A stretch of DNA of 63,350 bases from Candidatus Omnitrophota bacterium. Lineage in GTDB: Bacteria > Omnitrophota > Gorgyraeia > Gorgyraeales > Gorgyraeaceae. How positions within the stretch are numbered: position 1 is the first letter of the stretch; the number at the start of each line of letters is the position of its first letter. The translations under genes and the position numbers were made by a program. The stretch is from the NCBI GenBank assembly GCA_042572045.1, contig JBHPFI010000004.1, forward strand, positions 1 to 63,350. The letters run 5' to 3'. Shown here in pieces: positions 3,184 through 20,313 of the stretch. The notes under the pieces were generated by a model that saw only the letters and a list, made by a program, of their open reading frames with translations, was not told where the DNA came from and searched no databases.

Positions 3184-4437
3184 GTGCAACATGACCTTGA
3201 GAGATGGCGAGGTTTTTTCTTTCAAACGACGAAAGACAATACCGATTTTAAGCGTAATTTATTTCTAGTTTATATTAAAAAGAAAAAATCTCTCTTTGTA
3301 CTCTATCGACTGATAGAGAAACTTAAAGATGGATTTTTCGGAAGCATTGCCGTACTTTCATTTTATTTAATCACTTACCTTTTTATTCGTTTCCCGCAGA
3401 ACAGAAAACGCATTTCAATGGCGCAATTGAAAACTGAAAAAAAATCCTATGGAGATATTTTTGGCGGGAATGGCAATAAGATTGGTTTGATATATCCTAG
3501 TTTACTAATATCCTTTTCATCTATTAGACCACTTGTTGGGAGGTTTTTATCTAAAAGAATAATGCATGATTTTCGTATATTAGGTGTAATTTTAAAACGA
3601 TATGATTTATTTATTGCCTTAAGAGCGATTCAATACCTTGCTTATTACGATCGTTTTAACTTTCAAATAGACAAGAAAAGCACCGATATGATTATTGTCT
3701 TCACGGACGGAAACCCGCACGGAAGGGCATTGATGCAATTAGCGCACAGTAAAAATATCAAGATGTGCTTTGTTTCTCATGGTGAGCCAAACGAGCCTGT
3801 ACTTCCAATTTATTGCGATCTTATTTACCTGCTTGGCGAGAGATCGTCGTTCAGATATAAAAAGGTTAAAAGCCGCTTTAAGAAAGTTTTATACCATGGG
3901 CATAAAGATGCATTCAAAAAAATACGAGAGATCGAATTTAAAACAAATCTTAGAATAGGGATATTTCTTAGTAAGTCAACAATATTAGATAATGTCATAA
4001 AATTAACCTATTTATTAAATAAGGCATTTAGATGCGAGGCCATTTTAATCCGAAGGCATCCAAATATGGATCTCTCAAAAAGGGAAGAGAAGACACTTCT
4101 AAAAAACTCTAAAGTACAGATAAGCAACGGTAGGTCAATCGATAGAGACATTGAAAAAAGCGACTTTATCCTAGCGGGTGATTCTACTGTCCATGTCGAT
4201 GCATTGTTAAGAGGTTGCCCCAGTTTTTACTATCGTGATCTCGAAGAAGATTTTTTTGACAGATATGGATATGTCAAAGAAGGGCTTATTCTCGATTGGA
4301 ATATAGATATGTCCCTGGACGATATAAATGATTTTTACCAAGATTTGAATAAAAAAAACAGGATTAATTATTATCTCAATACAGAAAAAGATTCACAAGA
4401 ATCAATTAAGGAGATAAATGAAATCATTTTTGAATAA
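3184..4437 (+). CDS. Hypothetical GT-B-like protein, candidate nonulosonic-acid transferase
   Basis: GTG start directly after neuA. Contains 'FVSHG', 'LIRRHP' and 'STVHVDALLRGCP', resembling HP and ST motifs of capsule/sialyltransferase-like GT-B proteins. Confidence 0.45.
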   Translation: MQHDLERWRGFFFQTTKDNTDFKRNLFLVYIKKKKSLFVLYRLIEKLKDGFFGSIAVLSFYLITYLFIRFPQNRKRISMAQLKTEKKSYGDIFGGNGNKIGLIYPSLLISFSSIRPLVGRFLSKRIMHDFRILGVILKRYDLFIALRAIQYLAYYDRFNFQIDKKSTDMIIVFTDGNPHGRALMQLAHSKNIKMCFVSHGEPNEPVLPIYCDLIYLLGERSSFRYKKVKSRFKKVLYHGHKDAFKKIREIEFKTNLRIGIFLSKSTILDNVIKLTYLLNKAFRCEAILIRRHPNMDLSKREEKTLLKNSKVQISNGRSIDRDIEKSDFILAGDSTVHVDALLRGCPSFYYRDLEEDFFDRYGYVKEGLILDWNIDMSLDDINDFYQDLNKKNRINYYLNTEKDSQESIKEINEIIFE

Positions 4438-5278
4438 AAAGCTCATCAGCTATTTTATTAAGATAATTATTGGGCTTGGCCTCTATCTCTATTTGTTTTT
4501 ACAAAACAAGATAAATTTCGATTTCTTTCAATATAAAAATAGCTTTCTTCTTATTCAATTGTTTGCGCTGCAGGTGTTCATGCTTGCCATAGGAACCCTG
4601 AGATGGCATCGTATTGGAGTGTATGCCTTTGGCATGAAGATTTCATTATTGACTACAGCTTATATTTCTTGGATCGGGCAGTTCTTTTCAACTTTTTTGC
4701 CCTCTACTGTTGGAGCTGATTTGAGCCGTATTTATTATGTCAGTAAAAAAATAAATATGCCCAAAAAGAAGTTGCTTAAAATAACGATCATGGATAGATT
4801 GACCGCATTGCTAACAGTCATAACATGGAGTGCCTTAGGGTTGGTTTTTTATTTCAAAGGTTTTAACTTATTTATGAGTGTATCCTCCATCTTGACTGTT
4901 TTAGCCTTGCTTAGATTACTTCCAAAAAGAAAATTGAAACAAATTTTATTTAAAAAAGATATTAAGCTGCCGCCATTTAGTGTTGTTATTTTAAGCCTAT
5001 TTATTTTTCTATTGAAAGCACTTTCGCTCTTTCTGATTATTTATTTAGTAAGAGACAAGGGAGGCATTAATGACTATTATCTTTGTCTAGGTTCCCAGTT
5101 CATTGAAGGACTGAGAATTTTACCTGCCAATATTGGCATGGGACATATATTGTTTGACAAGGCATTGGGCCTTATTGAAAACATCAATGGCGCTCAGATA
5201 TACAATATATATTTTACTGTTAAGATTTTATTCAAGGTAACAGGTTTGGTTGGTTGGTTATTTATACGAACAAACTGA
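4418..5278 (+). CDS. Lysylphosphatidylglycerol-synthase-TM / YbhN-like flippase-type membrane protein
   Basis: Multi-TM protein with 'LRWH', 'WIGQFFSTFLPSTVGADLSRIYY', 'MDRL' and 'LPANIGMG', typical of this family. Confidence 0.7.
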   Translation: MKSFLNKKLISYFIKIIIGLGLYLYLFLQNKINFDFFQYKNSFLLIQLFALQVFMLAIGTLRWHRIGVYAFGMKISLLTTAYISWIGQFFSTFLPSTVGADLSRIYYVSKKINMPKKKLLKITIMDRLTALLTVITWSALGLVFYFKGFNLFMSVSSILTVLALLRLLPKRKLKQILFKKDIKLPPFSVVILSLFIFLLKALSLFLIIYLVRDKGGINDYYLCLGSQFIEGLRILPANIGMGHILFDKALGLIENINGAQIYNIYFTVKILFKVTGLVGWLFIRTN

Positions 5279-6690: not shown

Positions 6691-8307
6691 ATGAAGATTA
6701 AGGTAGTAACTATTCTTATAATTATAAGCCTATTTCATATTGTGAATAACAGTATAGTATTACATCAAGACCAGAGCGTGCCTGTGTATGATAGGGCGTC
6801 TCATATACTTAGTGGTTATGAGATTTACAAGGACTACAATATCGTTTCTCCCCATGGTTTGCAAAAAGCTTATAGTTATTTCTATAACATAGCGGGAGGA
6901 TACTATCCCCCGTTTTTTTATCTTACTTCTGCCCCACTTTTCTATTTGGTAGCGTTAAATTCTGACTTTGCCCTTTATGCAAATATATTGTATCTTTTTA
7001 TTCTTATGTTTTCAGTATATGGAATTGGTAAAAACCTATATGACAGTAAGGTAGGTGTTCTATCTGCATTTGTGGTTTCTATGTTTCCTGGTATATTTGC
7101 ATTTTCAAGGGTAGCTTTTTTAGAGCTTCCTCTTACAGCAATGGTGACTCTCAGCATCTTTCTGCTTCTTTCGACAGAACATTTCAGAAAAAGATGGCTT
7201 TCTTTTCTTTTTGGATTAAGCATAGGCCTGGGGATGCTTACAAAGTGGTCTTTTGTAGTATACGTAATAGGCGTCTTAGTTTATTATGTTTTTATATCCA
7301 TAAAAGATAATCCAGAGGATCGTAAGAAGTTCCTATTAAATATATCACTGGCGCTATTTATAGCATTTATTGTAAGTGCACCCTGGTATATTGCTAATGC
7401 AATAAAGCTTATTAAAAATATTTTATTGATTTCTACATGGGAAGGGGCATACACTGGCAAACCATTATTATTCCATCTTCTTTTTTATATACGCAGTCTT
7501 TATCTCTATCAGATGTACCCATTTTTGTTTCTGTTGTTTACCCCGCTCTTTTTTAAACATCTGATCAGAAAGAAATGGGTTATTGTTCTTTGGTTAATTG
7601 CCCCATTTATATTATTTACAGTCTTAACTAATAAAGATGTGCGTTACACCATGCCTATGCTGCCGGCTATAGGCATAATAATCGCATCTGAGGCAGCGCA
7701 ATTAAGAAAAGGCATATTGGTAACAGTATGTTCATTTTTGTTATTTCAGTTTTTTTTATTATCTTATCTACCCACAAGCGTTTTTAATAGCATGCAATTA
7801 AGAACGCATCCCTTTGGAATAGATTTTAATTATGCAGAATACAAGGACAGCGATCCATTATTTGAAACCGGAATCCTTTTCCCAGATAGAAGAGGCCATA
7901 TGCGGAGGGAGCAGGCTCGCCAGATAGTCTCTGTTTTTAAAAGACATAAAGGTAGGGACAACGATTCATTAAAGGTCTTGTTCACCTTTAATATAGGAAA
8001 AATTTATTATAGTGTTCTTTTTGCCCTAGCACAGGAAAATTTAAGGCCGTTGGTACATTGTCCTGCCATGAAAGATATGGCCTTTATAGGGGAATTTTTA
8101 AAGAAAGATTTCAACTATGACAATTACTTACTCAAACATGACATTATAGTCACTAAGAGTGGCTATAAGGGGGGAAACGGTACAAGACAAGTAGATGTTT
8201 TAGGAAAATTGGACAAGGCATTTTTTAGGAACAAAGATAGTTTTGTTTTAATAGATAGCTTAGAGAATGATGATGGCAGTAAGGTCTGTATTTATAAAAG
8301 AATATAG
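6691..8307 (+). CDS. ArnT/PMT-like (GT39/GT83) GT-C glycosyltransferase
   Basis: 'YDRASH', 'YYPPFFY', 'VGVLSAFVVSMFP', 'LGMLTKWS', 'APWY' and 'KDVRYTMPMLP'. Confidence 0.8.
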   Translation: MKIKVVTILIIISLFHIVNNSIVLHQDQSVPVYDRASHILSGYEIYKDYNIVSPHGLQKAYSYFYNIAGGYYPPFFYLTSAPLFYLVALNSDFALYANILYLFILMFSVYGIGKNLYDSKVGVLSAFVVSMFPGIFAFSRVAFLELPLTAMVTLSIFLLLSTEHFRKRWLSFLFGLSIGLGMLTKWSFVVYVIGVLVYYVFISIKDNPEDRKKFLLNISLALFIAFIVSAPWYIANAIKLIKNILLISTWEGAYTGKPLLFHLLFYIRSLYLYQMYPFLFLLFTPLFFKHLIRKKWVIVLWLIAPFILFTVLTNKDVRYTMPMLPAIGIIIASEAAQLRKGILVTVCSFLLFQFFLLSYLPTSVFNSMQLRTHPFGIDFNYAEYKDSDPLFETGILFPDRRGHMRREQARQIVSVFKRHKGRDNDSLKVLFTFNIGKIYYSVLFALAQENLRPLVHCPAMKDMAFIGEFLKKDFNYDNYLLKHDIIVTKSGYKGGNGTRQVDVLGKLDKAFFRNKDSFVLIDSLENDDGSKVCIYKRI

Positions 8308-8311
8308 AGAC

Positions 8312-9475
8312 ATGAGAATTAAATTTATAAAATTAATAGATAAATACCTCGGGATACCACTGGTATCTTTTTTTTCATGCCTGAGGTATTTGAGGATTAA
8401 AAGAAAGACTCAGGAGAAAAAAGAAAAAACCATTCTCTTTGTAAAATTCTGGGGTATGGGTAATATTATTTTGTCATTACCGGCTGTTCGGGCTGTAGAG
8501 AAAACTTTCCCTGATTCAAAGATACTATTTTTAACGCTTGAAAAAAACAGGGGATTGGTTGAGGGTTGCCATCTTTCAGATGAAGTTTTATATTTAAAAT
8601 TAGGTTCTTTTTTTAAACTGTGTCTCAATAGCGTTAAATTGATTTTTAATCTGAGACGCAGAAAAATAGATATTGTGTTTGATTTTGAAGAATTTGCGAG
8701 ATTTTCCACGCTATTGATTTATCTTTCTGGAGCCCGAAACAGAATAGGCTTTTCAACAAAAGGCATATACAGGGCTGATCTCTATACAAAAACTCTTCCT
8801 TTTGAAGAGAATAGGCACACCATGGAGAATTTCATAGATCTTGTTGAGTTAGCAGGAGTAAAGGTATCAGATGTGGATTATATAAAGATTTCTTATTCTC
8901 AGAAAGACATGGTATATATCGACTCGTTCCTGGACGGCAGCCTTAAGGATTCAAGACCTATCATAGGATTGAATGTAGGCAGTGGTCCAAATGTATTATT
9001 AAGGCGGTGGCCAACTCATAACTTTATTGAATTGGGGAATATTCTGATGCAGGAGCTTGGCGCGAGATTATTATTCGTGGGGACAGAGAACGAAAGGGCC
9101 ATAGTCGATTCGGTTGTAAAAAAACTTAACCAAATTCCATTAAACCTGGTTGGATTGACAAATATGACACAATTAGCTTATTTAATAGAGAGGTGTCATA
9201 TTTTTATATCAAATGATAGTGGTCTTGCTCATTTTGCACAGGCAATGAAGGTCCCGACGGTTGTGCTATTTGGCCCTGAGAGCTCCGCTAAGTACGGACC
9301 CAGAGATTCGATGCATAAAGCTATATACAGGAACTTATCATGCAGTCCATGTTTGAGTGTTAATAATATGAAGAGTACGCGATGCAAGAATCCGATATGC
9401 ATTGAGAAGATAACAGTCGAAGAAGTATTTAATGAGGCAAAGAGGTTTTATGAAAAACGTGCTGTCGCTGGCTAA
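8312..9475 (+). CDS. Glycosyltransferase family 9 (heptosyltransferase-like)
   Basis: 'KFWGMGNIILSLP', 'RRWP', 'ISNDSGLAHFAQA', 'VLFGP' and 'CSPC...C...C'. Start placed at ATG 8312. Confidence 0.85.
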   Translation: MRIKFIKLIDKYLGIPLVSFFSCLRYLRIKRKTQEKKEKTILFVKFWGMGNIILSLPAVRAVEKTFPDSKILFLTLEKNRGLVEGCHLSDEVLYLKLGSFFKLCLNSVKLIFNLRRRKIDIVFDFEEFARFSTLLIYLSGARNRIGFSTKGIYRADLYTKTLPFEENRHTMENFIDLVELAGVKVSDVDYIKISYSQKDMVYIDSFLDGSLKDSRPIIGLNVGSGPNVLLRRWPTHNFIELGNILMQELGARLLFVGTENERAIVDSVVKKLNQIPLNLVGLTNMTQLAYLIERCHIFISNDSGLAHFAQAMKVPTVVLFGPESSAKYGPRDSMHKAIYRNLSCSPCLSVNNMKSTRCKNPICIEKITVEEVFNEAKRFYEKRAVAG

Positions 9476-10496
9476 AAATATAATCTCGTCTAATATCAAA
9501 AGATTAAGTTTTCCTTATAAATTGACATTTTCTATTACAAATAGGTGTAATTCCAGATGTAAGATCTGCTATATCTGGAAGAGAGGCACATCCGAGGAAT
9601 TGACCAGCAAAGAAATAGATACTTTCTTTAAAAAGTCAAATAGATTTAATTGGATAGACCTCACGGGTGGGGAGATATTTTTACGGGATGACCTTGAGGA
9701 GATAATAAACTCTATTTTAGCCAATTGTAAAGAGTTATACTTATTGCATTTCCCTACAAATGGTATGCTTACAGACCGAACTGTAAAGATAGTAGAAGAT
9801 ATTATGCCTTTTATGACTCACAAAAAACTTATTATTACTGTAAGTCTGGATGGACATGAAGCTCTGCATGATGATATCAGGGGTGTCCAAGGTTCCTATA
9901 GAAAGTCTATCGAGACATTCGGAAGATTGCGAAAAATAAAAGGTGCTGAAGTATATATAGGTATGACTCTATCTTCGTACAACTATTTACAACTGGATAG
10001 AATCTTTGAGTCTGTTAAAAAAGACTGCCCTTATCTGGGCTTCAGAGATTTTCATATCAATATCGTGCATAGCTCGAGTTTTCAATATGGAAATGAGGGT
10101 CAGATAAAGCCATATGACCCTAAGCTAGCAACAAGAGAGATTAATAATTTTATATCCAGAAAGAGTTTTAACCTGAACCCCGTATTATTATTAGAATGTT
10201 GTTATCTTCGACTGATCAGAAGGTATCTTATGGAGAAGAAGACTCCTATGCCTTGCAAGGCATTTTTTTCTTCGTGTTATATAAATGCAGAAGGGGATGT
10301 GTATCCTTGTTCTTTATACGATAAGAAGATGGGTAATATAAGGGATGAAGGAAGTGACTTGAAATCAATTTGGGAAAATACCTCGAATATTGATATCTTG
10401 TTACAGATAAAAGAGAAAAAGTGCCCTAATTGCTGGACTCCATGCGAGGCATATCAGAGTATATTGGGTAACCTGGCATTGCTATATATTAAATAA
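9450..10496 (+). CDS. Radical SAM enzyme with SPASM/twitch domain
   Basis: CxxxCxxC 'CNSRCKIC', 'TGGE', 'SLDG..LHDDIRG'. C-terminal 'CKAFFSSCYINAEGDVYPC...CPNCWTPC'. GAGG upstream of ATG 9450. Confidence 0.9.
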   Translation: MKNVLSLAKNIISSNIKRLSFPYKLTFSITNRCNSRCKICYIWKRGTSEELTSKEIDTFFKKSNRFNWIDLTGGEIFLRDDLEEIINSILANCKELYLLHFPTNGMLTDRTVKIVEDIMPFMTHKKLIITVSLDGHEALHDDIRGVQGSYRKSIETFGRLRKIKGAEVYIGMTLSSYNYLQLDRIFESVKKDCPYLGFRDFHINIVHSSSFQYGNEGQIKPYDPKLATREINNFISRKSFNLNPVLLLECCYLRLIRRYLMEKKTPMPCKAFFSSCYINAEGDVYPCSLYDKKMGNIRDEGSDLKSIWENTSNIDILLQIKEKKCPNCWTPCEAYQSILGNLALLYIK

Positions 10497-10503
10497 AAAA
10501 ATA

Positions 10504-11739
10504 ATGAAAAGCTATCCTCGACATATTGTGAATATGGTACCAGGGGCAGGACGGATAATATTCGGTTTCAATAAGAGTAAGACCGATTATGTCAGCAGGT
10601 TTGAGAAGGAGTTTGCAGGATACATAGGCGTTCCATACGCTATAGCTGTTTCCTCGGGTCGCACTGCCCTGTACTTGGCGCTTGAAAGCCTGGGGTTGAA
10701 ACAGGGGGATGAAGTGGCTCTGTCCGCGTATAACTTTCCAATCGTGCCTTTGGTGATAAAGAAAATGGGATTTGTGCCTGTTTTTGTAGACGCTGACCTG
10801 GAAACTTATAATATGGACATGGATTCAGTAGAAAAAAGTATTACACCCAGAACAAAGGCTGTAATCGCTACTCATCTCTTTGGCCAGGCTTGCGACATAA
10901 GGAAATTGAAGAAGATATGCATAGAGAGAGGGATAAGGCTTATTGAGGATTGCGCTCATTGCTGCGGTGCGGAATACGGAAAGCAGAGATTAGGCTCCTT
11001 TGGAGATATAGCGTATTTTAGTTTCAGCATGCCGAAGAATATTACATGTTTTGGCGGAGGCATGATAATAATAAAAGATACTGATATAAATGAAGCGATT
11101 AGAAAAAAAATAAATCAATTTTATCCGATTCCGGAGACCAAGGTGTTCAAGGGCGCATTGATCACTTATATTATACATTTTCTTCTAAGCCCCAGGATCT
11201 TTACTTTTTTCTCGTACCCTGTTTTAAGATTTTTCGATCTTCTGGGCTTTGGACCTTCTGACAGAGTACTGGATAAGGAACTCGCAGCATTTCTTGCAAA
11301 GGACCTGGAGAAAGATGTCGCCAGGTTGAACAATAAGCAGGCCAGGGTAGGACTGATGCAGCTTGATAGGATAGAAAAGATCAATAATAGATTAAAAAGG
11401 AATGCAGATCTAATAGCGAATCATCTCAAGAATACAGATAAGATTCAACTGCCCAGCCAGATAGCTTCATCCAGGGGTATTTTTTCTTATTATAGGATCC
11501 TGGTTGATGAACCGATGATGTTGAAAAGATTGCTATTGAGAAATGGCGTTGATTCCCAGAAGGGGAATATAATAGATTGCTCTAAGCTGGATTTTTTTAG
11601 AATCCGCAATAAAGACTCATTCCCCAACACAAGAATACTCTCTGAAAAAGGACTTGAAATACCGAGTAATTATATAATGAAAGATAGCGATATATTGAAC
11701 ATTTGCAGCGTTATAAAACGAGCATTGGGAGAGGATTAG
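10504..11739 (+). CDS. DegT/DnrJ/EryC1/StrS family PLP-dependent sugar aminotransferase
   Basis: 'VSSGRTAL', 'THLFG', 'IEDCAH' and 'FSFSMPKNITCFGGG' (PLP lysine). Confidence 0.9.
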   Translation: MKSYPRHIVNMVPGAGRIIFGFNKSKTDYVSRFEKEFAGYIGVPYAIAVSSGRTALYLALESLGLKQGDEVALSAYNFPIVPLVIKKMGFVPVFVDADLETYNMDMDSVEKSITPRTKAVIATHLFGQACDIRKLKKICIERGIRLIEDCAHCCGAEYGKQRLGSFGDIAYFSFSMPKNITCFGGGMIIIKDTDINEAIRKKINQFYPIPETKVFKGALITYIIHFLLSPRIFTFFSYPVLRFFDLLGFGPSDRVLDKELAAFLAKDLEKDVARLNNKQARVGLMQLDRIEKINNRLKRNADLIANHLKNTDKIQLPSQIASSRGIFSYYRILVDEPMMLKRLLLRNGVDSQKGNIIDCSKLDFFRIRNKDSFPNTRILSEKGLEIPSNYIMKDSDILNICSVIKRALGED

Positions 11740-13224
11740 ATGATCGGAAAGGCTATGTTGATATTCCCTGCCTCTTTGACGCTGAAGAGCTATTTTAAGG
11801 AGCTAACCCCACCTTTGGGCATCGCATATCTGGGCGCAGTCCTTAAAGAAAATGGTTTTCAAGTCAATATACTAGATGCTACGGCGGATGGCTGGGAACA
11901 CGAAGAGGTTATAAATAATGAATATATCAGATATGGCCTTTCTCTGGATAGCATAAGACAAAGGATAAAAGATTTTTCTCCTGATGTTCTGGGTGTTTCC
12001 TGTCTATTGTCTTCGCAATATAGAGAGATGCATGGTATTTGTAAGATAGCAAAGGATATCTCAAGAGATATGATCACCATAGTTGGCGGGGAACACCCGA
12101 GTTCATTGCCCCATGAAACGCTGAAGGATAAAAACATTGATTTTGTCGTGCTCGGAGAAGGCGAGATGACATTCAGAGATCTTTTGGTAAGAATGAACAA
12201 GGGGTGGCATTATAATGATTTGGATGGTCTCGCATTCAGGGATAACGGAAAGATAAAGATAAATCCCAAAAAGATGTTTATTAAAGACCTTGACATGCTG
12301 CCTTTTCCTGCAAGGCATTTACTTCCGATGCAGAAATATTTCACTATCAATCGACCACAGGCCTTAACATGGAGAAAAAGACCTAATACATCTGTAATTA
12401 CTTCAAGGGGTTGTGGGGCCAGATGCATCTTTTGCGGCACAACAAGACATTGGGGGAATCGCTTTAGGGCCAGGTCAGCTGAGAATGTCCTGAAAGAGAT
12501 AGATCGTTTAATAAAGGAGTATGGAATAAAGGAGGTTCAGTTTATAGACGACAACCTTTTGAGCGATAGGGGTCGGGCGCTTCAATTATTAGACGGACTA
12601 AAAGAAAGAAGATTATCATGGTGGGCGCCTCATGGTTTTGCGGTGTGGACACTGGACAAGGAGTTGTTAAGGAAACTCAAGGATAGTGGTTGTTATGAGA
12701 TTACCCTCGGTATCGATAGCGCTGATAAACGCGTGCTTAAGGAGATAATTCACAAGCCGTTAGATATAGATGTTGTTCCTTCTCTTGTGAAAGAGATGAG
12801 GAGACTGAGGATCAATACCAAGGCCTATTTTATAGTAGGCTTTCCTGGCGAAACGAAAAAAGAGATGAAAAGGACTTTTCGTTTTGCCAGAACCTTAAAA
12901 TTTGACGCAGCCACTTTTTTTATTGCATCCCCTTTACCAGGAACAGAGTTGTATAAAATATGTCATGAAAATAAGTATATAAAGGATGGATTTACATGGC
13001 AAGACCTGAATTTTGGCAAAGCTGTGATCGGCACAGAAGAATTTTCACCGGAAGAAATGCAGGAGTGGGCCCACAGAGAAACTTTACTAGTTAATCTAAG
13101 AACATTTTTTATTAATCCTGCAGGATTTATTAGGAAATTCGGCCCGATAATACTAAAAAATCCTTCCATATTTTTTAACTATTTTATAGCGCTTCTACGG
13201 TACACATTCAAAAAAAATATGTAA
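11740..13224 (+). CDS. Cobalamin-binding radical SAM enzyme (class B methyltransferase-like)
   Basis: 'PPLGIAYLGAVL', 'VGGEHPS', 'GEGE', 'TSRGCGARCIFC', 'FIDDN', 'FIVGFPGET' and 'PLPGTELY'. Confidence 0.9.
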   Translation: MIGKAMLIFPASLTLKSYFKELTPPLGIAYLGAVLKENGFQVNILDATADGWEHEEVINNEYIRYGLSLDSIRQRIKDFSPDVLGVSCLLSSQYREMHGICKIAKDISRDMITIVGGEHPSSLPHETLKDKNIDFVVLGEGEMTFRDLLVRMNKGWHYNDLDGLAFRDNGKIKINPKKMFIKDLDMLPFPARHLLPMQKYFTINRPQALTWRKRPNTSVITSRGCGARCIFCGTTRHWGNRFRARSAENVLKEIDRLIKEYGIKEVQFIDDNLLSDRGRALQLLDGLKERRLSWWAPHGFAVWTLDKELLRKLKDSGCYEITLGIDSADKRVLKEIIHKPLDIDVVPSLVKEMRRLRINTKAYFIVGFPGETKKEMKRTFRFARTLKFDAATFFIASPLPGTELYKICHENKYIKDGFTWQDLNFGKAVIGTEEFSPEEMQEWAHRETLLVNLRTFFINPAGFIRKFGPIILKNPSIFFNYFIALLRYTFKKNM

Positions 13225-13234
13225 TATTATATAT

Positions 13235-13452
13235 ATGGTAAATATTGTCGAAATGGGGGGGGGTTATGAAAAGTTACAATATAAGGCTAGAAGTTATCAC
13301 TGTTTAGAAAAGGAGATAGGAGATGGGACAAAATATGACCAGGTTTAATGGGATATGTAAAGAAAAAGGATTATTTAGAAGCAGTAGGGCAGTACAACAA
13401 GGTATTGGGGATGAGGCCAGAGGCAGTTGATTTACCAAATAGATTTTTATGA
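13235..13452 (+). pseudogene. Probable decayed TPR-protein fragment (two short frames joined at TAATG)
   Basis: 13235..13348 (37 aa) is followed by 13348..13452 'MGYVKKKDYLEAVGQYNKVLGMRPEA', which fits TPR spacing (G..Y...Y..A...Y.K.L...P). A G9 tract lies at 13255-13263. Confidence 0.4.
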
Positions 13453-13577
13453 AAACAATATGCAGGTAGATGGCAATAACTACGTCTTATTTAAGGTAGA
13501 TATAGAGATCCTAAAGTTCACTGGGACCTTAGAGCGGCTCAGAGATCAAATCTTCTAAAGCCTTTAATTTTAGAAAA

Positions 13578-15320
13578 ATGAATATTTTTAAAAATTCCGT
13601 TAAATCTGCAACTCTTGAAGCAAGGTTTTCTTATTTTGTATTACTTTTGCTTTTTTTGTTTCATTTTGTAAGCAATATAGTCATTATTGCAAGAGACACA
13701 ACACCTTTTATTGCAGATGCGTCAGAGTTTTACATACAAAGTTTTTATTATTGGCGGGGGGTTGTAGATTTTATCAAATCCGGCGATTTCCAAATGCTAG
13801 GCCTTATTTTTAAAGATAAGCCATTGCAGGCGCAGCTCCTTAGTTTTATCAGTATACCTTTTTATTCTATTTTAGGTTTCAGTCATGATACAGCTATTAT
13901 AGCAGGGCAGTTATTTTTTCTTGTACTGTTATTAAGCATATTCAAGATAGGCAGATTTCTTTTTAATAACACTGTTGGTCTTCTAGCAGCATTTATTATT
14001 TCATTCTACCCATCTGTCTTTGGTTTCTCCAGAGTGTATATGCTTACATTACCTATTTTGGCCATATCTGCATTGTGCGTATATCTTTTTATTAAAACAG
14101 GCGTATTTAAAAATCGTAAATATTCAGTATATTTTGGCCTGGCATGCGGCTTGGGAGGATTGTTAAGGCCACGTTTTTTTATCTATATTCTTATACCTGT
14201 AGTGCTGTATGCCGGGGGCTATATAGTTACTTTATTCAGAAAGAGAGATGACTTGAAGCGATTATTGACTAAACAGAAATTTTTTAATATCTTTCTTTCA
14301 ATATTCTGTTCTGGTTTTTTGCTTTTTCCGTGGTATTCTCTATCTAGCATATCCGAATATTTTAGATACCAGGATACATGGTCTACAATGCCAAATTTTT
14401 CAAATATAGGCCCAACACTTTTATATTATATTCAAGTATTATTCGGTTTGCAGTTACATTGGTTTTTTTCGTTTTTATTTCTATCAGGATTACTGGTATC
14501 TTTTTTTAATCGCGGCAGGAAATTAAGCATTTTTTTTCTTTTGGCCTGGTTTATTTTTACACTAATCCTTGTTTCAAGTTTTGGTTTAAAGGACTATAGC
14601 CGCCTTATTGTGCCTTTATGTGTACCGCTAGCACTTATATCTTCTTCAGGGGTAGAGAGCTTTGCGCGACAGAAAGCAGGTAAATTTATTTTATCTGCCT
14701 TAGGGTTTTTTGTCGTAGCCCAGTACTTTTTCATCTCGTATAGCCAGATGGCAGGAAAGATCATTTACAAGTCTATTCCTGTGATAAATAGGGAGCATGG
14801 ACGGAGATATTTTTATGACATATCTTTATCTTATGGGTTATTGCAAGCAAATGGTTATGATTGGAATATAGATAAGATGATGCCTTTATTTAAGACACGC
14901 AGGAACTTTGATGGGAAGTTCAGGTGGAGTCTCGTAAACAATAATCTTAGTTATTTGACTGTTTCAGGTATTCCGCACAATATCGATAATCTAATTAAAA
15001 TATTATATATAGACTGTCGTGGCTCACCAATTGTTACTGAAATCGAACAGAGGGCGGTTACAGGCAATCTTCCTGTATCTGTTGTCGGGTTGTACTCATC
15101 TGACTTTGAATACAGAGACCTGTTTACAGATTATGATTTTCGTAATATTGTTCTGGGGGCTGATTATGTTATTATATTCGAGGGGGGGGATCCAGGGGCA
15201 GGGATGCTTTCAGAAATAAAAGATATGTTTGATGCAAATATATCTAAATTTGAAGAACTAAAGACGATAAAGACTCCGTGGGGAGAAAGCCTGATCTATG
15301 GAGCAGGCGCAAGAAAATGA
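13578..15320 (+). CDS. ArnT/PMT-like GT-C glycosyltransferase, paralog of 6691..8307
   Basis: Shares 'VGLLAAFIISFYPSVFGFSRV', 'LFPWY' and 'RLIVPL' segments with the 6691 protein. Many TMs plus a soluble C-terminal domain. Confidence 0.8.
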   Translation: MNIFKNSVKSATLEARFSYFVLLLLFLFHFVSNIVIIARDTTPFIADASEFYIQSFYYWRGVVDFIKSGDFQMLGLIFKDKPLQAQLLSFISIPFYSILGFSHDTAIIAGQLFFLVLLLSIFKIGRFLFNNTVGLLAAFIISFYPSVFGFSRVYMLTLPILAISALCVYLFIKTGVFKNRKYSVYFGLACGLGGLLRPRFFIYILIPVVLYAGGYIVTLFRKRDDLKRLLTKQKFFNIFLSIFCSGFLLFPWYSLSSISEYFRYQDTWSTMPNFSNIGPTLLYYIQVLFGLQLHWFFSFLFLSGLLVSFFNRGRKLSIFFLLAWFIFTLILVSSFGLKDYSRLIVPLCVPLALISSSGVESFARQKAGKFILSALGFFVVAQYFFISYSQMAGKIIYKSIPVINREHGRRYFYDISLSYGLLQANGYDWNIDKMMPLFKTRRNFDGKFRWSLVNNNLSYLTVSGIPHNIDNLIKILYIDCRGSPIVTEIEQRAVTGNLPVSVVGLYSSDFEYRDLFTDYDFRNIVLGADYVIIFEGGDPGAGMLSEIKDMFDANISKFEELKTIKTPWGESLIYGAGARK

Positions 15321-16756
15321 GAATACTTTTAACCATACCACCTGTATTAAATAAAAGATCAAAGAAACAAGGTAATGGAAATCGCATAAAACGGGGTCTT
15401 TTGCCTCCTTTGGGCATTGGCTATATTGCATCTGTCTTGATCCAGGAGGGACACGAGGTGGATATTATCGATGCCCAGATCCTGGATTATGGCATTACTG
15501 AAATCTTGGAAGATATCGATAGATACAAGCCGGACATAATAGGAGTTTCTTTTTTAACACCACAGGAAGAACTGGCATATAGATTAATAGAGGAGGTAAA
15601 AAAACATTTTAAGAGTATCCAAGTTATTGTTGGGGGCGCTCATCCCACCTGTTTTCCTAAGAGGACTATGGACAGGTGTAAAGATATCGATATTTTAGTT
15701 ATAGGAGAGGGCGAATATATTATGCTTGAGCTGGTCCGTTGCCTGGAAGAAGGGAAGGCATTAAAGGGCGTAAAGGGCATTTATTATCGTGGTAATATGA
15801 GGGAGGCTTTAAAGACTCAAGAAGACACCCGGATAGTGAATCTCGATGCCTTGCCGTTTCCTGCGCGCCATCTTTATAAATTGTCTTCTTACATCCCAGA
15901 GCCTTTTGAAAATAAAAAGCTACCTTCGACCAGCATAATTGCTTCCCGAGGATGTACTTATGCCAAATGTACTTTTTGTTATCGTTCAGGGATATTAAAA
16001 AGACAATACAGGATCCAGAGTGCAGAGAAGAGTTTAGATGAAATACGCCATTTGATCAAAAATTTTGGGATCAAAGAATTTGTATTCTATGATGATGATC
16101 TTTCTTCGAATAAGAAATGGTTATTAAAGTTTTGTAGCTTATTGAGAAAAGAAAAGATTTTAATCACATGGTCTTTTCGTGGTAGGTCAAATACAGTCGA
16201 CCACGAGATTTTAAAACAGGCAAAAGAAGCAGGTTGTTTTAGCATTGCGTTTGGGTTTGAATCAGGTAATCAGGATCTGCTGGATAATATTAAAAAAGGA
16301 ATTACATTGGAAGATACCAGGCGCGTAGCTAGTTTAGCTAATGGCCTGGGGTTAGAAGTTGTAGGCACATTTATGTTAGGTTTGCCTGGAGAGAATCCCC
16401 AAAAAGCGGAAAAAACAATAGAGTTTGCTATAGAGCTTAACTGCACTTACGCAGCTTTCATACCTACCCATCCTTTCCTCGGAACCGAATTGTACGATCA
16501 ATGTCAAAGGCAAGGAAAGATTATGCAATCTACTTATTCGGATAAGGACATGTGCCATACTAGGTATATACCTAGAGTGACTTATGTACCCTCTGGATAT
16601 AAGAATAAGGAAGAACTTGAAGAAATGATAGTAAAGGCTTATAAGAGATTTTATCTGCGCCCAAGTTATTTTTGTAAACATATAAGAAAGATAAAGAGCT
16701 TTGAAGATATAAAAAAATACTGGAATGGATTTACATTCCTTTTAGGATTAGTTTAA
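15317..16756 (+). CDS. Cobalamin-binding radical SAM enzyme
   Basis: ATGA overlap at 15317. 'PPLGIGYIASVL', 'GGAHPT', 'SRGCTYAKCTFC' (CX4CX2C variant), 'FYDDD', 'GFESG' and 'FMLGLPGE'. Confidence 0.9.
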   Translation: MRILLTIPPVLNKRSKKQGNGNRIKRGLLPPLGIGYIASVLIQEGHEVDIIDAQILDYGITEILEDIDRYKPDIIGVSFLTPQEELAYRLIEEVKKHFKSIQVIVGGAHPTCFPKRTMDRCKDIDILVIGEGEYIMLELVRCLEEGKALKGVKGIYYRGNMREALKTQEDTRIVNLDALPFPARHLYKLSSYIPEPFENKKLPSTSIIASRGCTYAKCTFCYRSGILKRQYRIQSAEKSLDEIRHLIKNFGIKEFVFYDDDLSSNKKWLLKFCSLLRKEKILITWSFRGRSNTVDHEILKQAKEAGCFSIAFGFESGNQDLLDNIKKGITLEDTRRVASLANGLGLEVVGTFMLGLPGENPQKAEKTIEFAIELNCTYAAFIPTHPFLGTELYDQCQRQGKIMQSTYSDKDMCHTRYIPRVTYVPSGYKNKEELEEMIVKAYKRFYLRPSYFCKHIRKIKSFEDIKKYWNGFTFLLGLV

Positions 16757-16776: not shown

Positions 16777-17463
16777 ATGATAAAGGGGATCTCTATTTTT
16801 ATACCAGCATATAATGATGAAAAGACAGTTAGGCAATTAATCCTTGATGCTATCTCTGTCATGGATCCCCTGGATCTTGATTATGAAATAATTATTGTAG
16901 ATGATGCTAGCAGAGATGCAACGGTTAAAATAGTCAAAAGACTTGCCGAAACCCATAAAAAGGTAAAATTAGTACAGCATAAAGAGAACAGAGATTATGG
17001 CGGTGCATTAAGGAGTGGGTTTCGGGCTGCAACTAAGGAATGGATATTCTATACTGATGGAGATGGCCAGTATGATATAAAAGAGATAACAGGGTTATTG
17101 CCTTATGCAGGAGAGTTTGATCTTATAAATGGGTACATACAAAAAAGGATGGACCCATGGTATAGAATTTTTGCTGGGAAGATATATCAATTTTTGATAG
17201 ATTGTCTTTTTGGAAAGACACTGATTTATACAAATTGTGATTTTAGACTGATCAGAAAAGAGATTATAGATCGCGTCAGCATAAATTCAAACAGCGGTTT
17301 TGCTCCAGCAGAGATTATTATAAGATTAGTCAGGAGCGGGGTCAGGGTTAAACAGGTACCTGTGAGCCATTTTCCCAGAAGATACGGGCGCTCTACATTT
17401 TTTAATATGAAAAGGATATTTAGCATATTTTCTGATCTATGCAGATTTTTAATCAAAGCATGA
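16777..17463 (+). CDS. GT2 glycosyltransferase, DPM1/GtrB-like (candidate polyprenol-phosphate sugar synthase)
   Basis: 'FIPAYND', 'IIVDDASRD', 'NRDYGGALRSG', 'TDGDGQYD' and 'CDFRL'. Confidence 0.85.
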   Translation: MIKGISIFIPAYNDEKTVRQLILDAISVMDPLDLDYEIIIVDDASRDATVKIVKRLAETHKKVKLVQHKENRDYGGALRSGFRAATKEWIFYTDGDGQYDIKEITGLLPYAGEFDLINGYIQKRMDPWYRIFAGKIYQFLIDCLFGKTLIYTNCDFRLIRKEIIDRVSINSNSGFAPAEIIIRLVRSGVRVKQVPVSHFPRRYGRSTFFNMKRIFSIFSDLCRFLIKA

Positions 17464-19247
17464 AAAAAAGTCAGACTGCAATAATCTTACTTATAGCCAC
17501 CTTTGTTCTGTTGAGGCTACTTCTGATCTCTTCTCAAAGAGATAGTATTTTTGATCCCAATGAATTTATTTCCGGCACCATAGCAATGGAACTTATCCAT
17601 GGATTATCCTTCCCGCTCAAGTACTGCGTGCCAGATAATCATAATTATGGCTCTGTAGTAAACGGTATATTGATAGTCCCTTTTTATCTTTTATTCGGGC
17701 CATCTACTGCTTCAGCAAAAATGGTTTCAATACTGTTTTCCCTTGGAACGCTTATATTCTGGTATTTGCTACTAGATAGATTTTTTAACCACCGGGTAGC
17801 TGTGATAACAAGTCTATTGTTTATTTTCTCACCTATAGTATATACAAAATCCTCAGTACTTTCTGTAGGCGCTCACCCAGAAACTACTTTTTTTACGGCG
17901 ATTACCATGTTTATCTTGTACCTTATCTTTTTTGATAACAGAAAGAAAAACATTTATTTTGCATTACTTGGTCTTGTGTCTGGTTTTGGTTTCTTTTATT
18001 CCTATCTTTTCGGGGTGACATTACTGGTAGTTCTCATATTCTGGTTTGTCTTTGACAGGAGGTTTGTATTAAGACCCGAATTCTATATATTCCTGATATT
18101 TCTTTTGATAGGTTTCAGTCCAAGACTGTATTTTACTGCTGGATTTAAGGGTGCCTATAGAGGGATTTTATGGTTTACGGGTGAGACATTCAGGTGGGGT
18201 GATATATCTTTTGATTATATTTTGTTCAAGACACGAAGATTTCTAATAAATGACATGGTTCGTTTGTTTGATTTCAGGCACCCCCCGTTTTTCTTTAGAT
18301 ACCTCTATTATAGTTTATTCTTGATAAGCACTTTACTTCTTTTACAGTTCAAAAATAAGTGTCTTGCGTATAAGGAGGCGCTGCTATTAGTTTTTCCATT
18401 TGTGTTTTCAATGGTTTATATATTAAGCCGTTATGCCATATTCAAAAACTGGTCGTGCGCAGGATACATAGTGCCGCTTTACCCGTTTATATTTGTGATC
18501 ATTGCGGTATTCTTTGAGCGGCTGATGCGCGCAAAATACGTATTAATAAAGATACTATCAGCGGTAGTCCTATGCCTTATTCTTTTAGCCGGCCTTTATG
18601 GGAACATAGACTTGATAGGATTTAAAAAAATCGGACAGGGATTTATCTACAAGGGCTATTCTTATAGATTGTTTGGGGAGAGGGTTAGTTCAACTAATTT
18701 TGGTAACAAAAAATTTCTTAAAATAATCAAGAATATGGAGTTTCCTAAAAGGCAATATTTTTTAGAAGGGTTTGGCTGGTCTATTTCTTCCGCTCGTTCT
18801 CTATATGCAGTAGAAGAAGATATGAAGAGGTTTTCTTTTAGTAAAGTAGACAGGCTTCATTATTTTAAGGGCATGGGAAGAGGGCTGGCTCATCTAATGA
18901 GTCTGCGGCTGTGCGGCAAAAAAGACACCTTTGTCAGTCCATATGTTCTAACCCCATGTTTTTCAGTATTCAAGCACATTGCGAAGAATCACGAAGAAGA
19001 GCAAAGATATTTCTGGGAAGGCTTTGGACAGGGGCTTGATTTGTCGTCCGATACAATCGAAGTTATTAAAGATCATATCGAAGATAGATTTAAACCATAT
19101 CTTTATCAAGGTTTAGGAGATGCAGTTGCTGAGGTATTCTCGGAACAAAAACCCTTACTCCATGAATTCGACTCAAGGTACAGAAAATATATACATTCGG
19201 CTTATAGCAAAGCCCGCTCTGAGTTACTGCTAAAAGGACACATATAA
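17460..19247 (+). CDS. GT-C-like membrane protein with C-terminal repeated G-x-G helical motifs
   Basis: ATGA overlap at 17460. 'DPNEF..G..A', 'HNYGS', 'G.HPE' and many TMs. The C-terminus repeats Y/F-x-x-G-Phi-G four times. Confidence 0.6.
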   Translation: MKKSQTAIILLIATFVLLRLLLISSQRDSIFDPNEFISGTIAMELIHGLSFPLKYCVPDNHNYGSVVNGILIVPFYLLFGPSTASAKMVSILFSLGTLIFWYLLLDRFFNHRVAVITSLLFIFSPIVYTKSSVLSVGAHPETTFFTAITMFILYLIFFDNRKKNIYFALLGLVSGFGFFYSYLFGVTLLVVLIFWFVFDRRFVLRPEFYIFLIFLLIGFSPRLYFTAGFKGAYRGILWFTGETFRWGDISFDYILFKTRRFLINDMVRLFDFRHPPFFFRYLYYSLFLISTLLLLQFKNKCLAYKEALLLVFPFVFSMVYILSRYAIFKNWSCAGYIVPLYPFIFVIIAVFFERLMRAKYVLIKILSAVVLCLILLAGLYGNIDLIGFKKIGQGFIYKGYSYRLFGERVSSTNFGNKKFLKIIKNMEFPKRQYFLEGFGWSISSARSLYAVEEDMKRFSFSKVDRLHYFKGMGRGLAHLMSLRLCGKKDTFVSPYVLTPCFSVFKHIAKNHEEEQRYFWEGFGQGLDLSSDTIEVIKDHIEDRFKPYLYQGLGDAVAEVFSEQKPLLHEFDSRYRKYIHSAYSKARSELLLKGHI

Positions 19248-19320: not shown

Positions 19321-20313
19321 ATGCAAAACAGTTTGTTTACCGGCAAAAAAGTAATGATTACAGGAGGTTTGGGTTTTATCGGAAGTAACCTTGCGCATGA
19401 ATTAGTAAAATTGAAAGCCAGGGTATTAATTGTAGATTCACTATCTCCTTTATGTGGCGGAAATATTTTTAATATAAAAGGCATCAAGAATAAATGCAAA
19501 GTAGTCATAAGAGATATCAGTGAGCAGTCTTTTATGAATAGTTTGGTAAAAAATCAAGATTTCATTTTTAATTTGGCGGGTCAAGTAAGCCATGTTGATA
19601 GTACAGAAGACCCATTTCAGGATTTAGAGACCAATTGCCATGCGCAGCTTTCACTGCTCGAGGCTTGCAAAAAGCATAATCCGAAGGCAAAGATAGTTTT
19701 TGCTGGAACAAGGGGGCAGTACGGGAAAACTACATATTTACCTGTAGATGAAAATCATCCAATGAATCCAGCGGATGTTAATGGAATCAACAAGATAGCG
19801 GCAGAATCATATCACATGATATACCATAGACATTATGGCTTAAGAACAACTTCTCTTAGATTGACAAATACCTATGGGCCCAGGCAGCAGATGAAAAATA
19901 AAAATCAGGGTTTTGTGAATTTTTTTATTCGGTCACTCATGGAGAGTAAAAATATAAAAATTTTTGGAGATGGCATGCAACTTAGAGATCTTAATTATAT
20001 AGATGATGTGACAAAGGCATTTCTGATTTCCGCTGTAAGCCAAAAAACCGATGGCCAAGTTTTCAATTTAGGTAGCAATAAAGGCGTCAGTGTCATTGGT
20101 ATAGCAAATTTGGTTATTGAGTTATTTGGGGCTGGAAGAATTGAGCATATCTCTTTCCCGGAAAATTACAGCAAGGTAGAAATAGGGGATTATATTGCTG
20201 ACGTTGCAAAAATAAAACAAATTTTAAACTGGGAAGCTTCTGTTTCTTTAAAAGAGGGGCTAAAGGCTACAATTGCGTATTATAAAAAGAACAGAAGGCA
20301 CTATTGGGAATGA
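19321..20313 (+). CDS. NAD-dependent epimerase/dehydratase (extended SDR) with atypical catalytic motif
   Basis: 'ITGGLGFIGSN', 'FNLAGQVSH', 'LRLTNTYGPRQ' and 'RDLNYIDD'. YxxxK reads NGINK. Confidence 0.85.
   Translation: MQNSLFTGKKVMITGGLGFIGSNLAHELVKLKARVLIVDSLSPLCGGNIFNIKGIKNKCKVVIRDISEQSFMNSLVKNQDFIFNLAGQVSHVDSTEDPFQDLETNCHAQLSLLEACKKHNPKAKIVFAGTRGQYGKTTYLPVDENHPMNPADVNGINKIAAESYHMIYHRHYGLRTTSLRLTNTYGPRQQMKNKNQGFVNFFIRSLMESKNIKIFGDGMQLRDLNYIDDVTKAFLISAVSQKTDGQVFNLGSNKGVSVIGIANLVIELFGAGRIEHISFPENYSKVEIGDYIADVAKIKQILNWEASVSLKEGLKATIAYYKKNRRHYWE

Follow-up and report, generated by a model that had tools for sequence, protein, structure and literature searches.

Gene content and conservation of the cassette

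The stretch of DNA analyzed here (hereafter the window) comprises positions 1 to 63,350 of contig JBHPFI010000004.1, from the genome assembly of a Candidatus Omnitrophota bacterium (GCA_042572045.1). It contains a cassette of four genes that follow one another head to tail at 8312-13224 (+ strand) and encode a family 9 glycosyltransferase (GT9), a radical S-adenosylmethionine (SAM) enzyme with a SPASM-type domain, a DegT-type aminotransferase, and a B12-binding radical SAM enzyme, here termed B12a. A preliminary description of this stretch assigned these domains, and Pfam matches bear the assignments out:

8312..9475, + strand: GT9-family glycosyltransferase of a distinct subfamily (PF01075, 3.6e-29); alternative start of the open reading frame (ORF) at 8267
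9450..10496, + strand: radical SAM enzyme with a SPASM/twitch-type C-terminal domain, from a family of ~350-residue proteins (PF04055, 2.4e-11; PF13186, 2e-09); ORF from 9432
10504..11739, + strand: DegT/DnrJ/EryC1 pyridoxal phosphate-dependent aminotransferase with a three-helix insertion of ~50 residues (PF01041, 4.7e-70)
11740..13224, + strand: B12-binding (class B) radical SAM enzyme, a probable methyltransferase (PF02310, 3.8e-26; PF04055, 2e-21)

The same description called the four genes tightly coupled, and their junctions agree with this. The GT9 stop codon, read from the sequence, occupies 9473-9475, and translation of SPASM probably begins with the ATG at 9450, 4 nt downstream of AAGAGG, which gives a 26-nt overlap and matches the gene call in the protein collection (348 residues). 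A gap of 7 nt separates the SPASM and DegT genes, and the DegT stop codon TAG directly abuts the ATG of the B12a gene (0 nt). The 5' boundary of the cassette is arbitrary, because the preceding gene, for a PMT_2 transferase, ends at 8307, 4 nt ahead of the GT9 ATG at 8312, and the region of 1-34 kb is a single co-directional run of mostly overlapping genes. The first sizeable gap lies 3' of the B12a gene (353 nt, 13225-13577), and no other gap in this part of the locus is as large; Rfam gives no match within it, and one possible ORF of ~35 codons starts near 13324. An Rfam scan of the whole window revealed no cobalamin riboswitch and no other RNA match, and promoter and terminator scans around the cassette gave nothing usefully above shuffled background.

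Two metagenome contigs from different samples retain the gene order. The first (L108) encodes the C-terminus of the GT9 enzyme (…CSPCLSIRNMKTTCCRNPLCLKEIT…), the SPASM enzyme (66% identity), the DegT enzyme (61%), and the N-terminus of the B12 enzyme (70%), and the second (L109) encodes the C-terminus of the SPASM enzyme (61%), the DegT enzyme (58%), and the B12 enzyme (68%), all in the same order as in the window. A GT9-SPASM-B12a arrangement from which DegT is absent occurs in one Woesearchaeota locus and one Nanoarchaeota locus. The order is not kept generally across 89 loci with SPASM orthologs: DegT adjoins the SPASM gene in none of them, and a B12 radical SAM gene is directly downstream in four. 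Thus, conservation of gene order in other genomes, proposed earlier as a check, is seen in L108 and L109 and not beyond; the four-gene order is a feature of near relatives only and not a general property of the SPASM family.

What the 89 loci do have in common is a glycosyltransferase setting. The gene directly upstream of SPASM on the same strand encodes GT9 in 20 loci, a DPM-like GT2 in 14, and a short-chain dehydrogenase/reductase (SDR) in 7; within 10 kb, GT9 is found in 46 loci, DPM-like GT2 in 41, SDR in 32, B12 radical SAM in 17, and DegT in 3. The two glycosyltransferases are largely alternatives (GT9 only, 35 loci; GT2 only, 30; both, 11; neither, 13), and the type of partner clusters on the SPASM tree. 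PMT_2 GT-C transferases make up 16 of the 49 direct neighbors that were otherwise unlabelled. Apparent long SPASM "fusions" in high-GC loci were discounted, as ORF calling over-extends genes there. The record L096 (CAMBZJ010000006.1) is titled as a Klebsiella pneumoniae metagenome-assembled genome (MAG); on the tree, its SPASM/GT9 locus groups with MAGs of Alphaproteobacteria, Binatia, and Myxococcota, and the label of this bin is probably wrong.

The DegT clade and a probable DprE1-like replacement

The aminotransferase is a member of the DegT family (PF01041, 237 bits), in which its catalytic lysine K178 and the aspartate D149 of the EDCA motif are invariant. Its model fold matches those of perosamine synthase and ArnB (TMt ~0.85), and its scores are below the cut-offs of the named equivalogs (ArnB, PseC, LegC, DesI, RfbH, and WecE), the top one being the LegC family (156 versus 420 bits). 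Solved relatives align with it solely at residues ~30-200; the alignment stops there because an insertion of ~50 residues follows K178. AlphaFold models this insertion (residues ~205-265) confidently as three helices, 211-227, 230-246, and 251-265 (overall predicted local distance difference test score [pLDDT] 91.7). It is present neither in canonical DegT proteins nor in any solved DegT structure, and the first two of its helices are more hydrophobic than control helices.

In a metagenome scan, DegT proteins with this insertion formed one clade (99% local support). Radical SAM genes neighbor 17 of 35 insertion-type DegT loci, as against none of the 49 canonical loci of comparable length (Fisher p = 2e-8), and 18 of the 24 members of the subclade that contains the DegT from the window have such a neighbor. 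The commonest operon in this subclade consists of an AprD4/HpnJ-like radical SAM gene, DegT, and a gene for a DedA/VTT protein (weakly UptA-like), near which PMT_2, GT87, GMC oxidase, or DPM-like GT2 genes are found. We know of no description of this operon, which is present in L117, L123, and L132 and also in L120, L125, L127, L128, L131, and L196. In the sister subclade, which is the other branch of the clade, insertion-type DegT genes have Mur ligase, FemAB-family, and alpha/beta-hydrolase genes in place of radical SAM genes as neighbors (L137, L138, L143, L149, L150, L153, L165, and L167).

One locus of the subclade that contains the window DegT, L115, bears on the role of the SPASM enzyme. 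Here the insertion-type DegT gene is adjoined, in the slot of SPASM, by a gene for a DprE1-like flavin adenine dinucleotide (FAD) oxidase. The PDB match of this protein to DprE1 has an E-value of 1e-35, with the next class at 1e-11, and the NCBIfam model for DprE1 gives 214 bits, below its cut-off. L115 further contains PMT_2 and LPG_synthase_TM genes, and its GT9 belongs to the special subfamily seen in the window; no radical SAM gene was found in the 17.6 kb fetched. Judging from similarity and position in this one locus, we read the oxidase as a non-orthologous replacement of the SPASM enzyme; a DprE1-like oxidase in that position fits a dehydrogenase role for SPASM. In mycobacteria, DprE1 and DprE2 epimerize decaprenyl-phosphoryl-ribose. 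The likeness lies in the oxidation: a lipid-linked sugar, which GT-C enzymes use afterwards, has one of its hydroxyls turned into a ketone. Unlike in the mycobacterial system, oxidation in the window would be the work of a radical SAM enzyme, the ketone would undergo amination and not reduction, and the lipid-linked substrate is putative. No second DprE1-like case was detected among the neighbors of 20 further Omnitrophota genes of this GT9 subfamily, which are mixed (TPR proteins, methyltransferases, some PMT_2, B12, and SPASM paralogs). In each of L001, L111, and L115, an LPG_synthase_TM gene adjoins cassette relatives.

The glycosyltransferase and the two radical SAM families

The GT9 domain of the first enzyme scores 102.2 bits against a Pfam cut-off of 22 (PF01075), which places it within the family. 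It is under the cut-offs of all heptosyltransferase equivalogs (WaaC/WaaF/WaaQ; the top one is TIGR02195, 101 versus 134.6 bits), and its nearest solved relatives are 3TOV and WaaF. Two features set the subfamily apart: an N-terminal extension of ~40 residues with a hydrophobic helix and an xLDxxxGxP motif (window 8312-8470), and a C-terminal four-cysteine motif, CSPC...C...C (C359, C362, C373, and C378; window 9340-9410). Both are common to 16 partner GT9 proteins, archaeal ones included, and to the GT9 of L115. The proposal that the acceptor is a heptose or a core sugar is uncertain, because the subfamily is also present in DPANN archaea, which have no lipopolysaccharide (LPS). The same genome has, on other contigs, a HldE kinase domain above its cut-off and a GmhA-like gene (197 bits versus a cut-off of 209), one of which is near another GT9 copy; four further GT9 matches are present in the genome. 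Heptose would thus be available to the cell, with no tie to the cassette.

The second enzyme has the radical SAM cluster motif C39-x3-C43-x2-C46, and its PF04055 match is above the cut-off. Its C-terminal region matches PF13186 (38.1 versus 21.5 bits) and has conserved cysteines (C275, C282, C293, C331, C334, and C338). These are six, where the SPASM motif CX9-15GX4C...CX2CX5CX3C...C has seven, and the second block reads CX2CX3C; the domain may be twitch-like or a partial SPASM. The family to which the enzyme belongs is unnamed (~350 residues, 43-66% identical, 2230 homologs listed), and its members have the three cluster cysteines and the six C-terminal ones in common. Reference genomes of about 480 species contain it (480 loci), spanning archaea such as Nanoarchaeota and Altiarchaeota and bacteria such as Myxococcota and Bacteroidota; orthologs were identified in 9 of 201 Omnitrophota genomes. 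No paper on the role of this family or of the B12a family was found in the open-access full-text literature.

The AlphaFold2 model of the SPASM enzyme (pLDDT 93.6) has as its Foldseek neighbors SkfB, BlsE, SuiB, anSME, EpeE, MoaA, BtrN, and DesII, with TM-scores of ~0.5-0.65. The predicted structure is thus a generic twitch/SPASM fold whose neighbors include both dehydrogenases (anSME and BtrN) and sugar-acting enzymes (BlsE and DesII). The enzyme had been likened to BtrN in particular, and this likeness was not upheld: phmmer searches of PDB sequences returned no BtrN at E <= 0.01, and in Foldseek BtrN ranks 20 (TMq 0.43), behind SkfB, BlsE, SuiB, anSME, and EpeE. In some loci, an HpnA/OleD-like SDR gene lies between GT9 and SPASM, which by analogy would be compatible with an oxidise-then-reduce pair like DprE1/DprE2, without being proof of one.

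The top matches in both sequence and fold, SkfB, SuiB, and YydG/EpeE, together with ScmE, PapB, and AlbA in the NCBIfam list, raise the question of whether the enzyme is a maturase of ribosomally synthesized and post-translationally modified peptides (RiPPs) that is found in a glycan locus only incidentally. We consider this very improbable. All of these scores are far under the family cut-offs, no peptide-recognition domain is apparent before the radical SAM core (only a single predicted helix precedes it, and it begins near residue 30), and no precursor peptide gene was noticed beside the SPASM gene. Glycosyltransferases, on the other hand, are constant neighbors over the 89 loci, which come from many phyla.

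The fourth enzyme, B12a, is a class B radical SAM protein with a strong B12-binding domain (PF02310, 91.7 versus 32.1 bits), a radical SAM domain (PF04055, 77.3 bits), and the cluster motif C225-x3-C229-x2-C232. Its top NCBIfam match is Sden_1168 (NF038361, 310 bits), well under the cut-off of 575, followed by HpnJ (179 bits); its nearest solved relatives are AprD4 (8e-21) and TokK. With Sden_1168, PhpK, and Fom3 it shares the combination of a B12-binding domain and a radical SAM core, and SD_1168 (Sden_1168), its best curated family, appears among the methyltransferases in a 2026 review (PMC12931638). On this similarity, B12a is a probable methyltransferase. The family is large (3679 homologs listed), with orthologs in 12 of 201 Omnitrophota genomes. 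Some members are fused to a nucleotidyltransferase (P0256 and P0265) and others to a class I methyltransferase (P0312 and P0332), which is also encoded adjacent to some orthologs. The nucleotidyltransferase fusions recall Fom3, whose substrate is cytidylylated; no phosphonate genes were seen in the window locus. In P0256 (L111:8001-10313), the fused partner is a sugar-1-phosphate nucleotidyltransferase, and the neighboring genes encode STT3/PMT_2, LPG_synthase_TM, GHMP kinase, SIS, HAD, transaldolase, and GT2 proteins, a gene content that suggests a pathway of the GDP-heptose type supplying a GT-C system. Another locus (L112:1353-19722) contains at least 8 B12-type radical SAM genes, of which five encode near paralogs of B12a, along with genes for a YfhO-like membrane protein of 1006 residues, a SPASM enzyme, and a methyltransferase.

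The kinship of B12a with AprD4, the radical SAM diol dehydratase of apramycin biosynthesis and its nearest relative of solved structure, suggests another order of events, in which the B12-type enzyme would produce the ketone by diol dehydration, DegT would convert it to an amino-deoxy sugar, and there would be no C-methylation. AprD4-like enzymes do partner the same DegT clade elsewhere; indeed, the largest group in the DegT subclade partners only AprD4/HpnJ-like radical SAM enzymes, in the operon with DedA. However, these partners are distant from B12a (82-104 bits), and B12a scores 310 bits to Sden_1168 versus 98 bits to the AprD4 family. Furthermore, AprD4 does not bind cobalamin (PMC12931638), whereas the B12-binding domain of B12a is strong. 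AprD4-like dehydration thus appears improbable in the window.

Locus setting and proposed pathway

The cassette lies within a surface-glycan locus of ~36 kb, whose other genes include the following:

4418..5278, + strand: LPG_synthase_TM/flippase-like membrane protein, candidate flippase for a lipid-linked sugar (PF03706, 2.1e-14; TIGR00374)
6691..8307, + strand: GT-C glycosyltransferase, PMT_2 (PF13231, 2e-11; PF02366, 3e-10)
13578..15320, + strand: second GT-C (PMT_2) transferase (PF13231, 9.9e-10)
15278..16756, + strand: second B12-binding radical SAM enzyme, HpnJ/BchE-like (PF04055 and PF02310; HpnJ 224 bits, below cut-off)
16777..17463, + strand: ArnC/DPM-like GT2, candidate polyprenyl-phosphate sugar synthase (PF00535, 1.1e-28)
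17439..19247, + strand: third GT-C (PMT_2) transferase (PF13231, 9.1e-12)
19321..20313, + strand: SDR of the nucleoside diphosphate (NDP)-sugar 4,6-dehydratase/epimerase type, an alternative source of a keto-sugar (PF01370, 6.7e-47)

The 5' part of the locus begins with a GFO/MocA gene (3-971), which is followed by NeuB-cupin, CMP-transferase, LPG_synthase_TM, and PMT_2 genes and then by the cassette. After the cassette come PMT_2, the second B12 radical SAM gene, the ArnC/DPM-like GT2, PMT_2, SDR, and a third B12 radical SAM gene, and the 3' part has three more SPASM enzymes, two GT4, a GT2, a GH5, and a fourth B12 radical SAM gene; Wzy_C is on the opposite strand, beyond the co-directional run. 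The top NCBIfam matches of the ArnC/DPM-like GT2 are ArnC (92 bits) and dolichyl-phosphate hexose transferase, and those of the SDR are dTDP-glucose 4,6-dehydratase (153 bits) and LegB (142 bits), all below cut-off. At the domain level, therefore, the locus contains a three-component set of polyprenyl-phosphate-type GT2, candidate flippase, and GT-C. Radical SAM genes make up an unusually large proportion of the genome itself (1.64 Mb, 81% complete), with 16 SPASM-type and >35 B12-type matches, several of which are in long arrays (e.g., C10:5900-28300, C12, C26, and C27).

This setting resembles that of the Arn pathway and of the three-component systems GtrA/B/V, LgmABC, and FlmF2/NaxD/FlmK, in which a DegT aminotransferase, an ArnC-like GT2, a flippase, and an ArnT-like GT-C are encoded in one locus and an amino sugar is delivered to the cell surface, as we propose for the window locus. 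It differs from Arn in that ArnB uses a soluble UDP-keto-sugar supplied by ArnA and radical SAM enzymes are not involved; no window protein reaches the cut-off of any Arn equivalog.

The preliminary description had likened the cassette to the logic of aminoglycoside tailoring. In gentamicin and butirosin sugar tailoring, BtrN is a twitch radical SAM dehydrogenase, GenD2 and GenS2 oxidize and then transaminate, and GenD1 and GenK are B12 radical SAM C-methyltransferases. The resemblance to this logic (BtrN, GenS2, and GenD1) is formal: the same three enzyme classes could plausibly oxidize, aminate, and C-methylate a sugar in sequence, and the DegT enzyme does match scyllo-inosose aminotransferases in PDB. 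However, perosamine synthase, ArnB, and DesI match it about equally, its insertion is not in the known enzymes, and the SPASM enzyme has no specific kinship with BtrN. No cyclitol synthase was seen among the ORFs scanned, and the locus content (GT-C, flippase-like protein, Wzy_C, GT2/GT4, NeuB, and CMP-transferase) is that of a surface glycan and not of secondary metabolism. A secondary-metabolite cluster of the aminoglycoside type is, in our assessment, scarcely credible, and both this reading and the RiPP reading were rejected on genomic context.

A more serious alternative is a nucleotide-sugar route, in which the SDR (19321-20313) or the GFO/MocA protein (3-971) would make an NDP-keto-sugar, DegT would aminate it, and the B12 enzyme would C-methylate the resulting NDP-amino-sugar, leaving the SPASM enzyme to act with GT9 elsewhere, e.g., in epimerization or some other alteration of the sugar transferred. 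On the one hand, the Omnitrophota orthologs of B12a have such genes as neighbors (in L202, L204, and L205): NTP_transferase, a 4,6-dehydratase-like SDR, an RmlC/FdtA-like isomerase, and a canonical DegT, as well as a class I methyltransferase. The nucleotidyltransferase fusions and the GDP-heptose-like context of L111 point the same way, the window has its own dehydratase-type SDR, and the SPASM and B12a families are distributed independently. On the other hand, the DegT of the window belongs to the radical SAM-associated clade and not to the canonical type of those loci, and the SPASM, DegT, and B12a genes are contiguous, a block kept in L108 and L109, whereas the SDR gene is 6 kb away. No hexose or heptose nucleotidyltransferase was seen in the locus, the sole one being CMP-type (CTP_transf_3). 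We regard the nucleotide-sugar route as possible and on balance unlikely.

The conserved SPASM-DegT-B12 block is read most economically as a set of enzymes that oxidize, transaminate, and C-methylate one sugar, and both the DprE1-like replacement and the tendency of the DegT clade to neighbor radical SAM genes support this reading. We propose, tentatively and at a little under an even chance, that the cassette is a sugar-tailoring submodule, acting by oxidation, amination, and methylation, within the large surface-glycan locus of this anaerobic, uncultured member of the Omnitrophota. The target would be a surface glycan sugar that is delivered by GT-C enzymes and is possibly lipid-linked. The C-methylated amino sugar suggested earlier accordingly stays plausible, given the SPASM-DegT-B12 block, the DegT clade, L115, and the match to Sden_1168, as a product whose chemistry is inferred.

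From the gene order, domains, catalytic motifs, and co-occurrence statistics observed, together with the DprE1-like replacement, we infer a substrate, an order of steps, and a chemical reaction for each step. The membrane-anchored GT9, or the ArnC/DPM-like GT2 downstream, would transfer a sugar to a carrier or acceptor that is bound to the membrane. From this sugar, the SPASM/twitch radical SAM enzyme would abstract a hydrogen atom and convert a hydroxyl of the sugar to a ketone, as the oxygen-independent counterpart of the DprE1-like FAD oxidase in the related locus. The insertion-bearing DegT enzyme would convert the ketone to an amine, and the B12-binding radical SAM enzyme would methylate an unactivated carbon. 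Finally, the flippase-like protein and the PMT_2 GT-C transferases would move the completed sugar to the outer side of the membrane and attach it there. In its stronger form, which we put forward as a speculative and rather doubtful extension, radical SAM enzymes and a dedicated DegT clade would oxidize, transaminate, and C-methylate polyprenyl-phosphate-linked sugars directly at the membrane, with the SPASM enzyme as an anaerobic analogue of DprE1 and GT9 in place of the DPM-like GT2 in carrier loading.

Several observations weigh against oxidation, amination, and methylation of a single, lipid-linked sugar. The rarity of DegT within 10 kb of SPASM (3 of 89 loci) implies that the core job of the SPASM family needs no amination, and the fold search does not discriminate between dehydrogenase, epimerase, thioether-forming, and other SPASM chemistries. 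The DprE1-like replacement was seen at one locus. Of the 201 Omnitrophota genomes, none other than that of the window has both SPASM and B12a orthologs, and, in view of the nucleotide-sugar neighbors and nucleotidyltransferase fusions of B12a, the B12 step may use an NDP-sugar and not a lipid-linked one. As for DegT, the sister subclade with the insertion (12 members) accompanies Mur ligase and FemAB genes, the hydrophobicity of the modeled insertion is only suggestive, and, to our knowledge, all characterized DegT enzymes use soluble substrates.

The window places two very large radical SAM families beside a DegT clade that is itself associated with radical SAM genes, and the cassette and the DprE1-like replacement together make a defined, assayable hypothesis: a mass change of -2 Da, followed by amination and then by +14 Da. 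If the substrate is indeed lipid-linked, this would be the first transamination and the first radical C-H chemistry known on polyprenyl-phosphate sugars, and it would account for some of the great abundance of radical SAM genes in the genomes of Omnitrophota and DPANN archaea. If tailoring does take place on the polyprenyl-linked sugar, it would represent an undescribed class of lipid-linked sugar tailoring in many bacterial phyla and in DPANN archaea.

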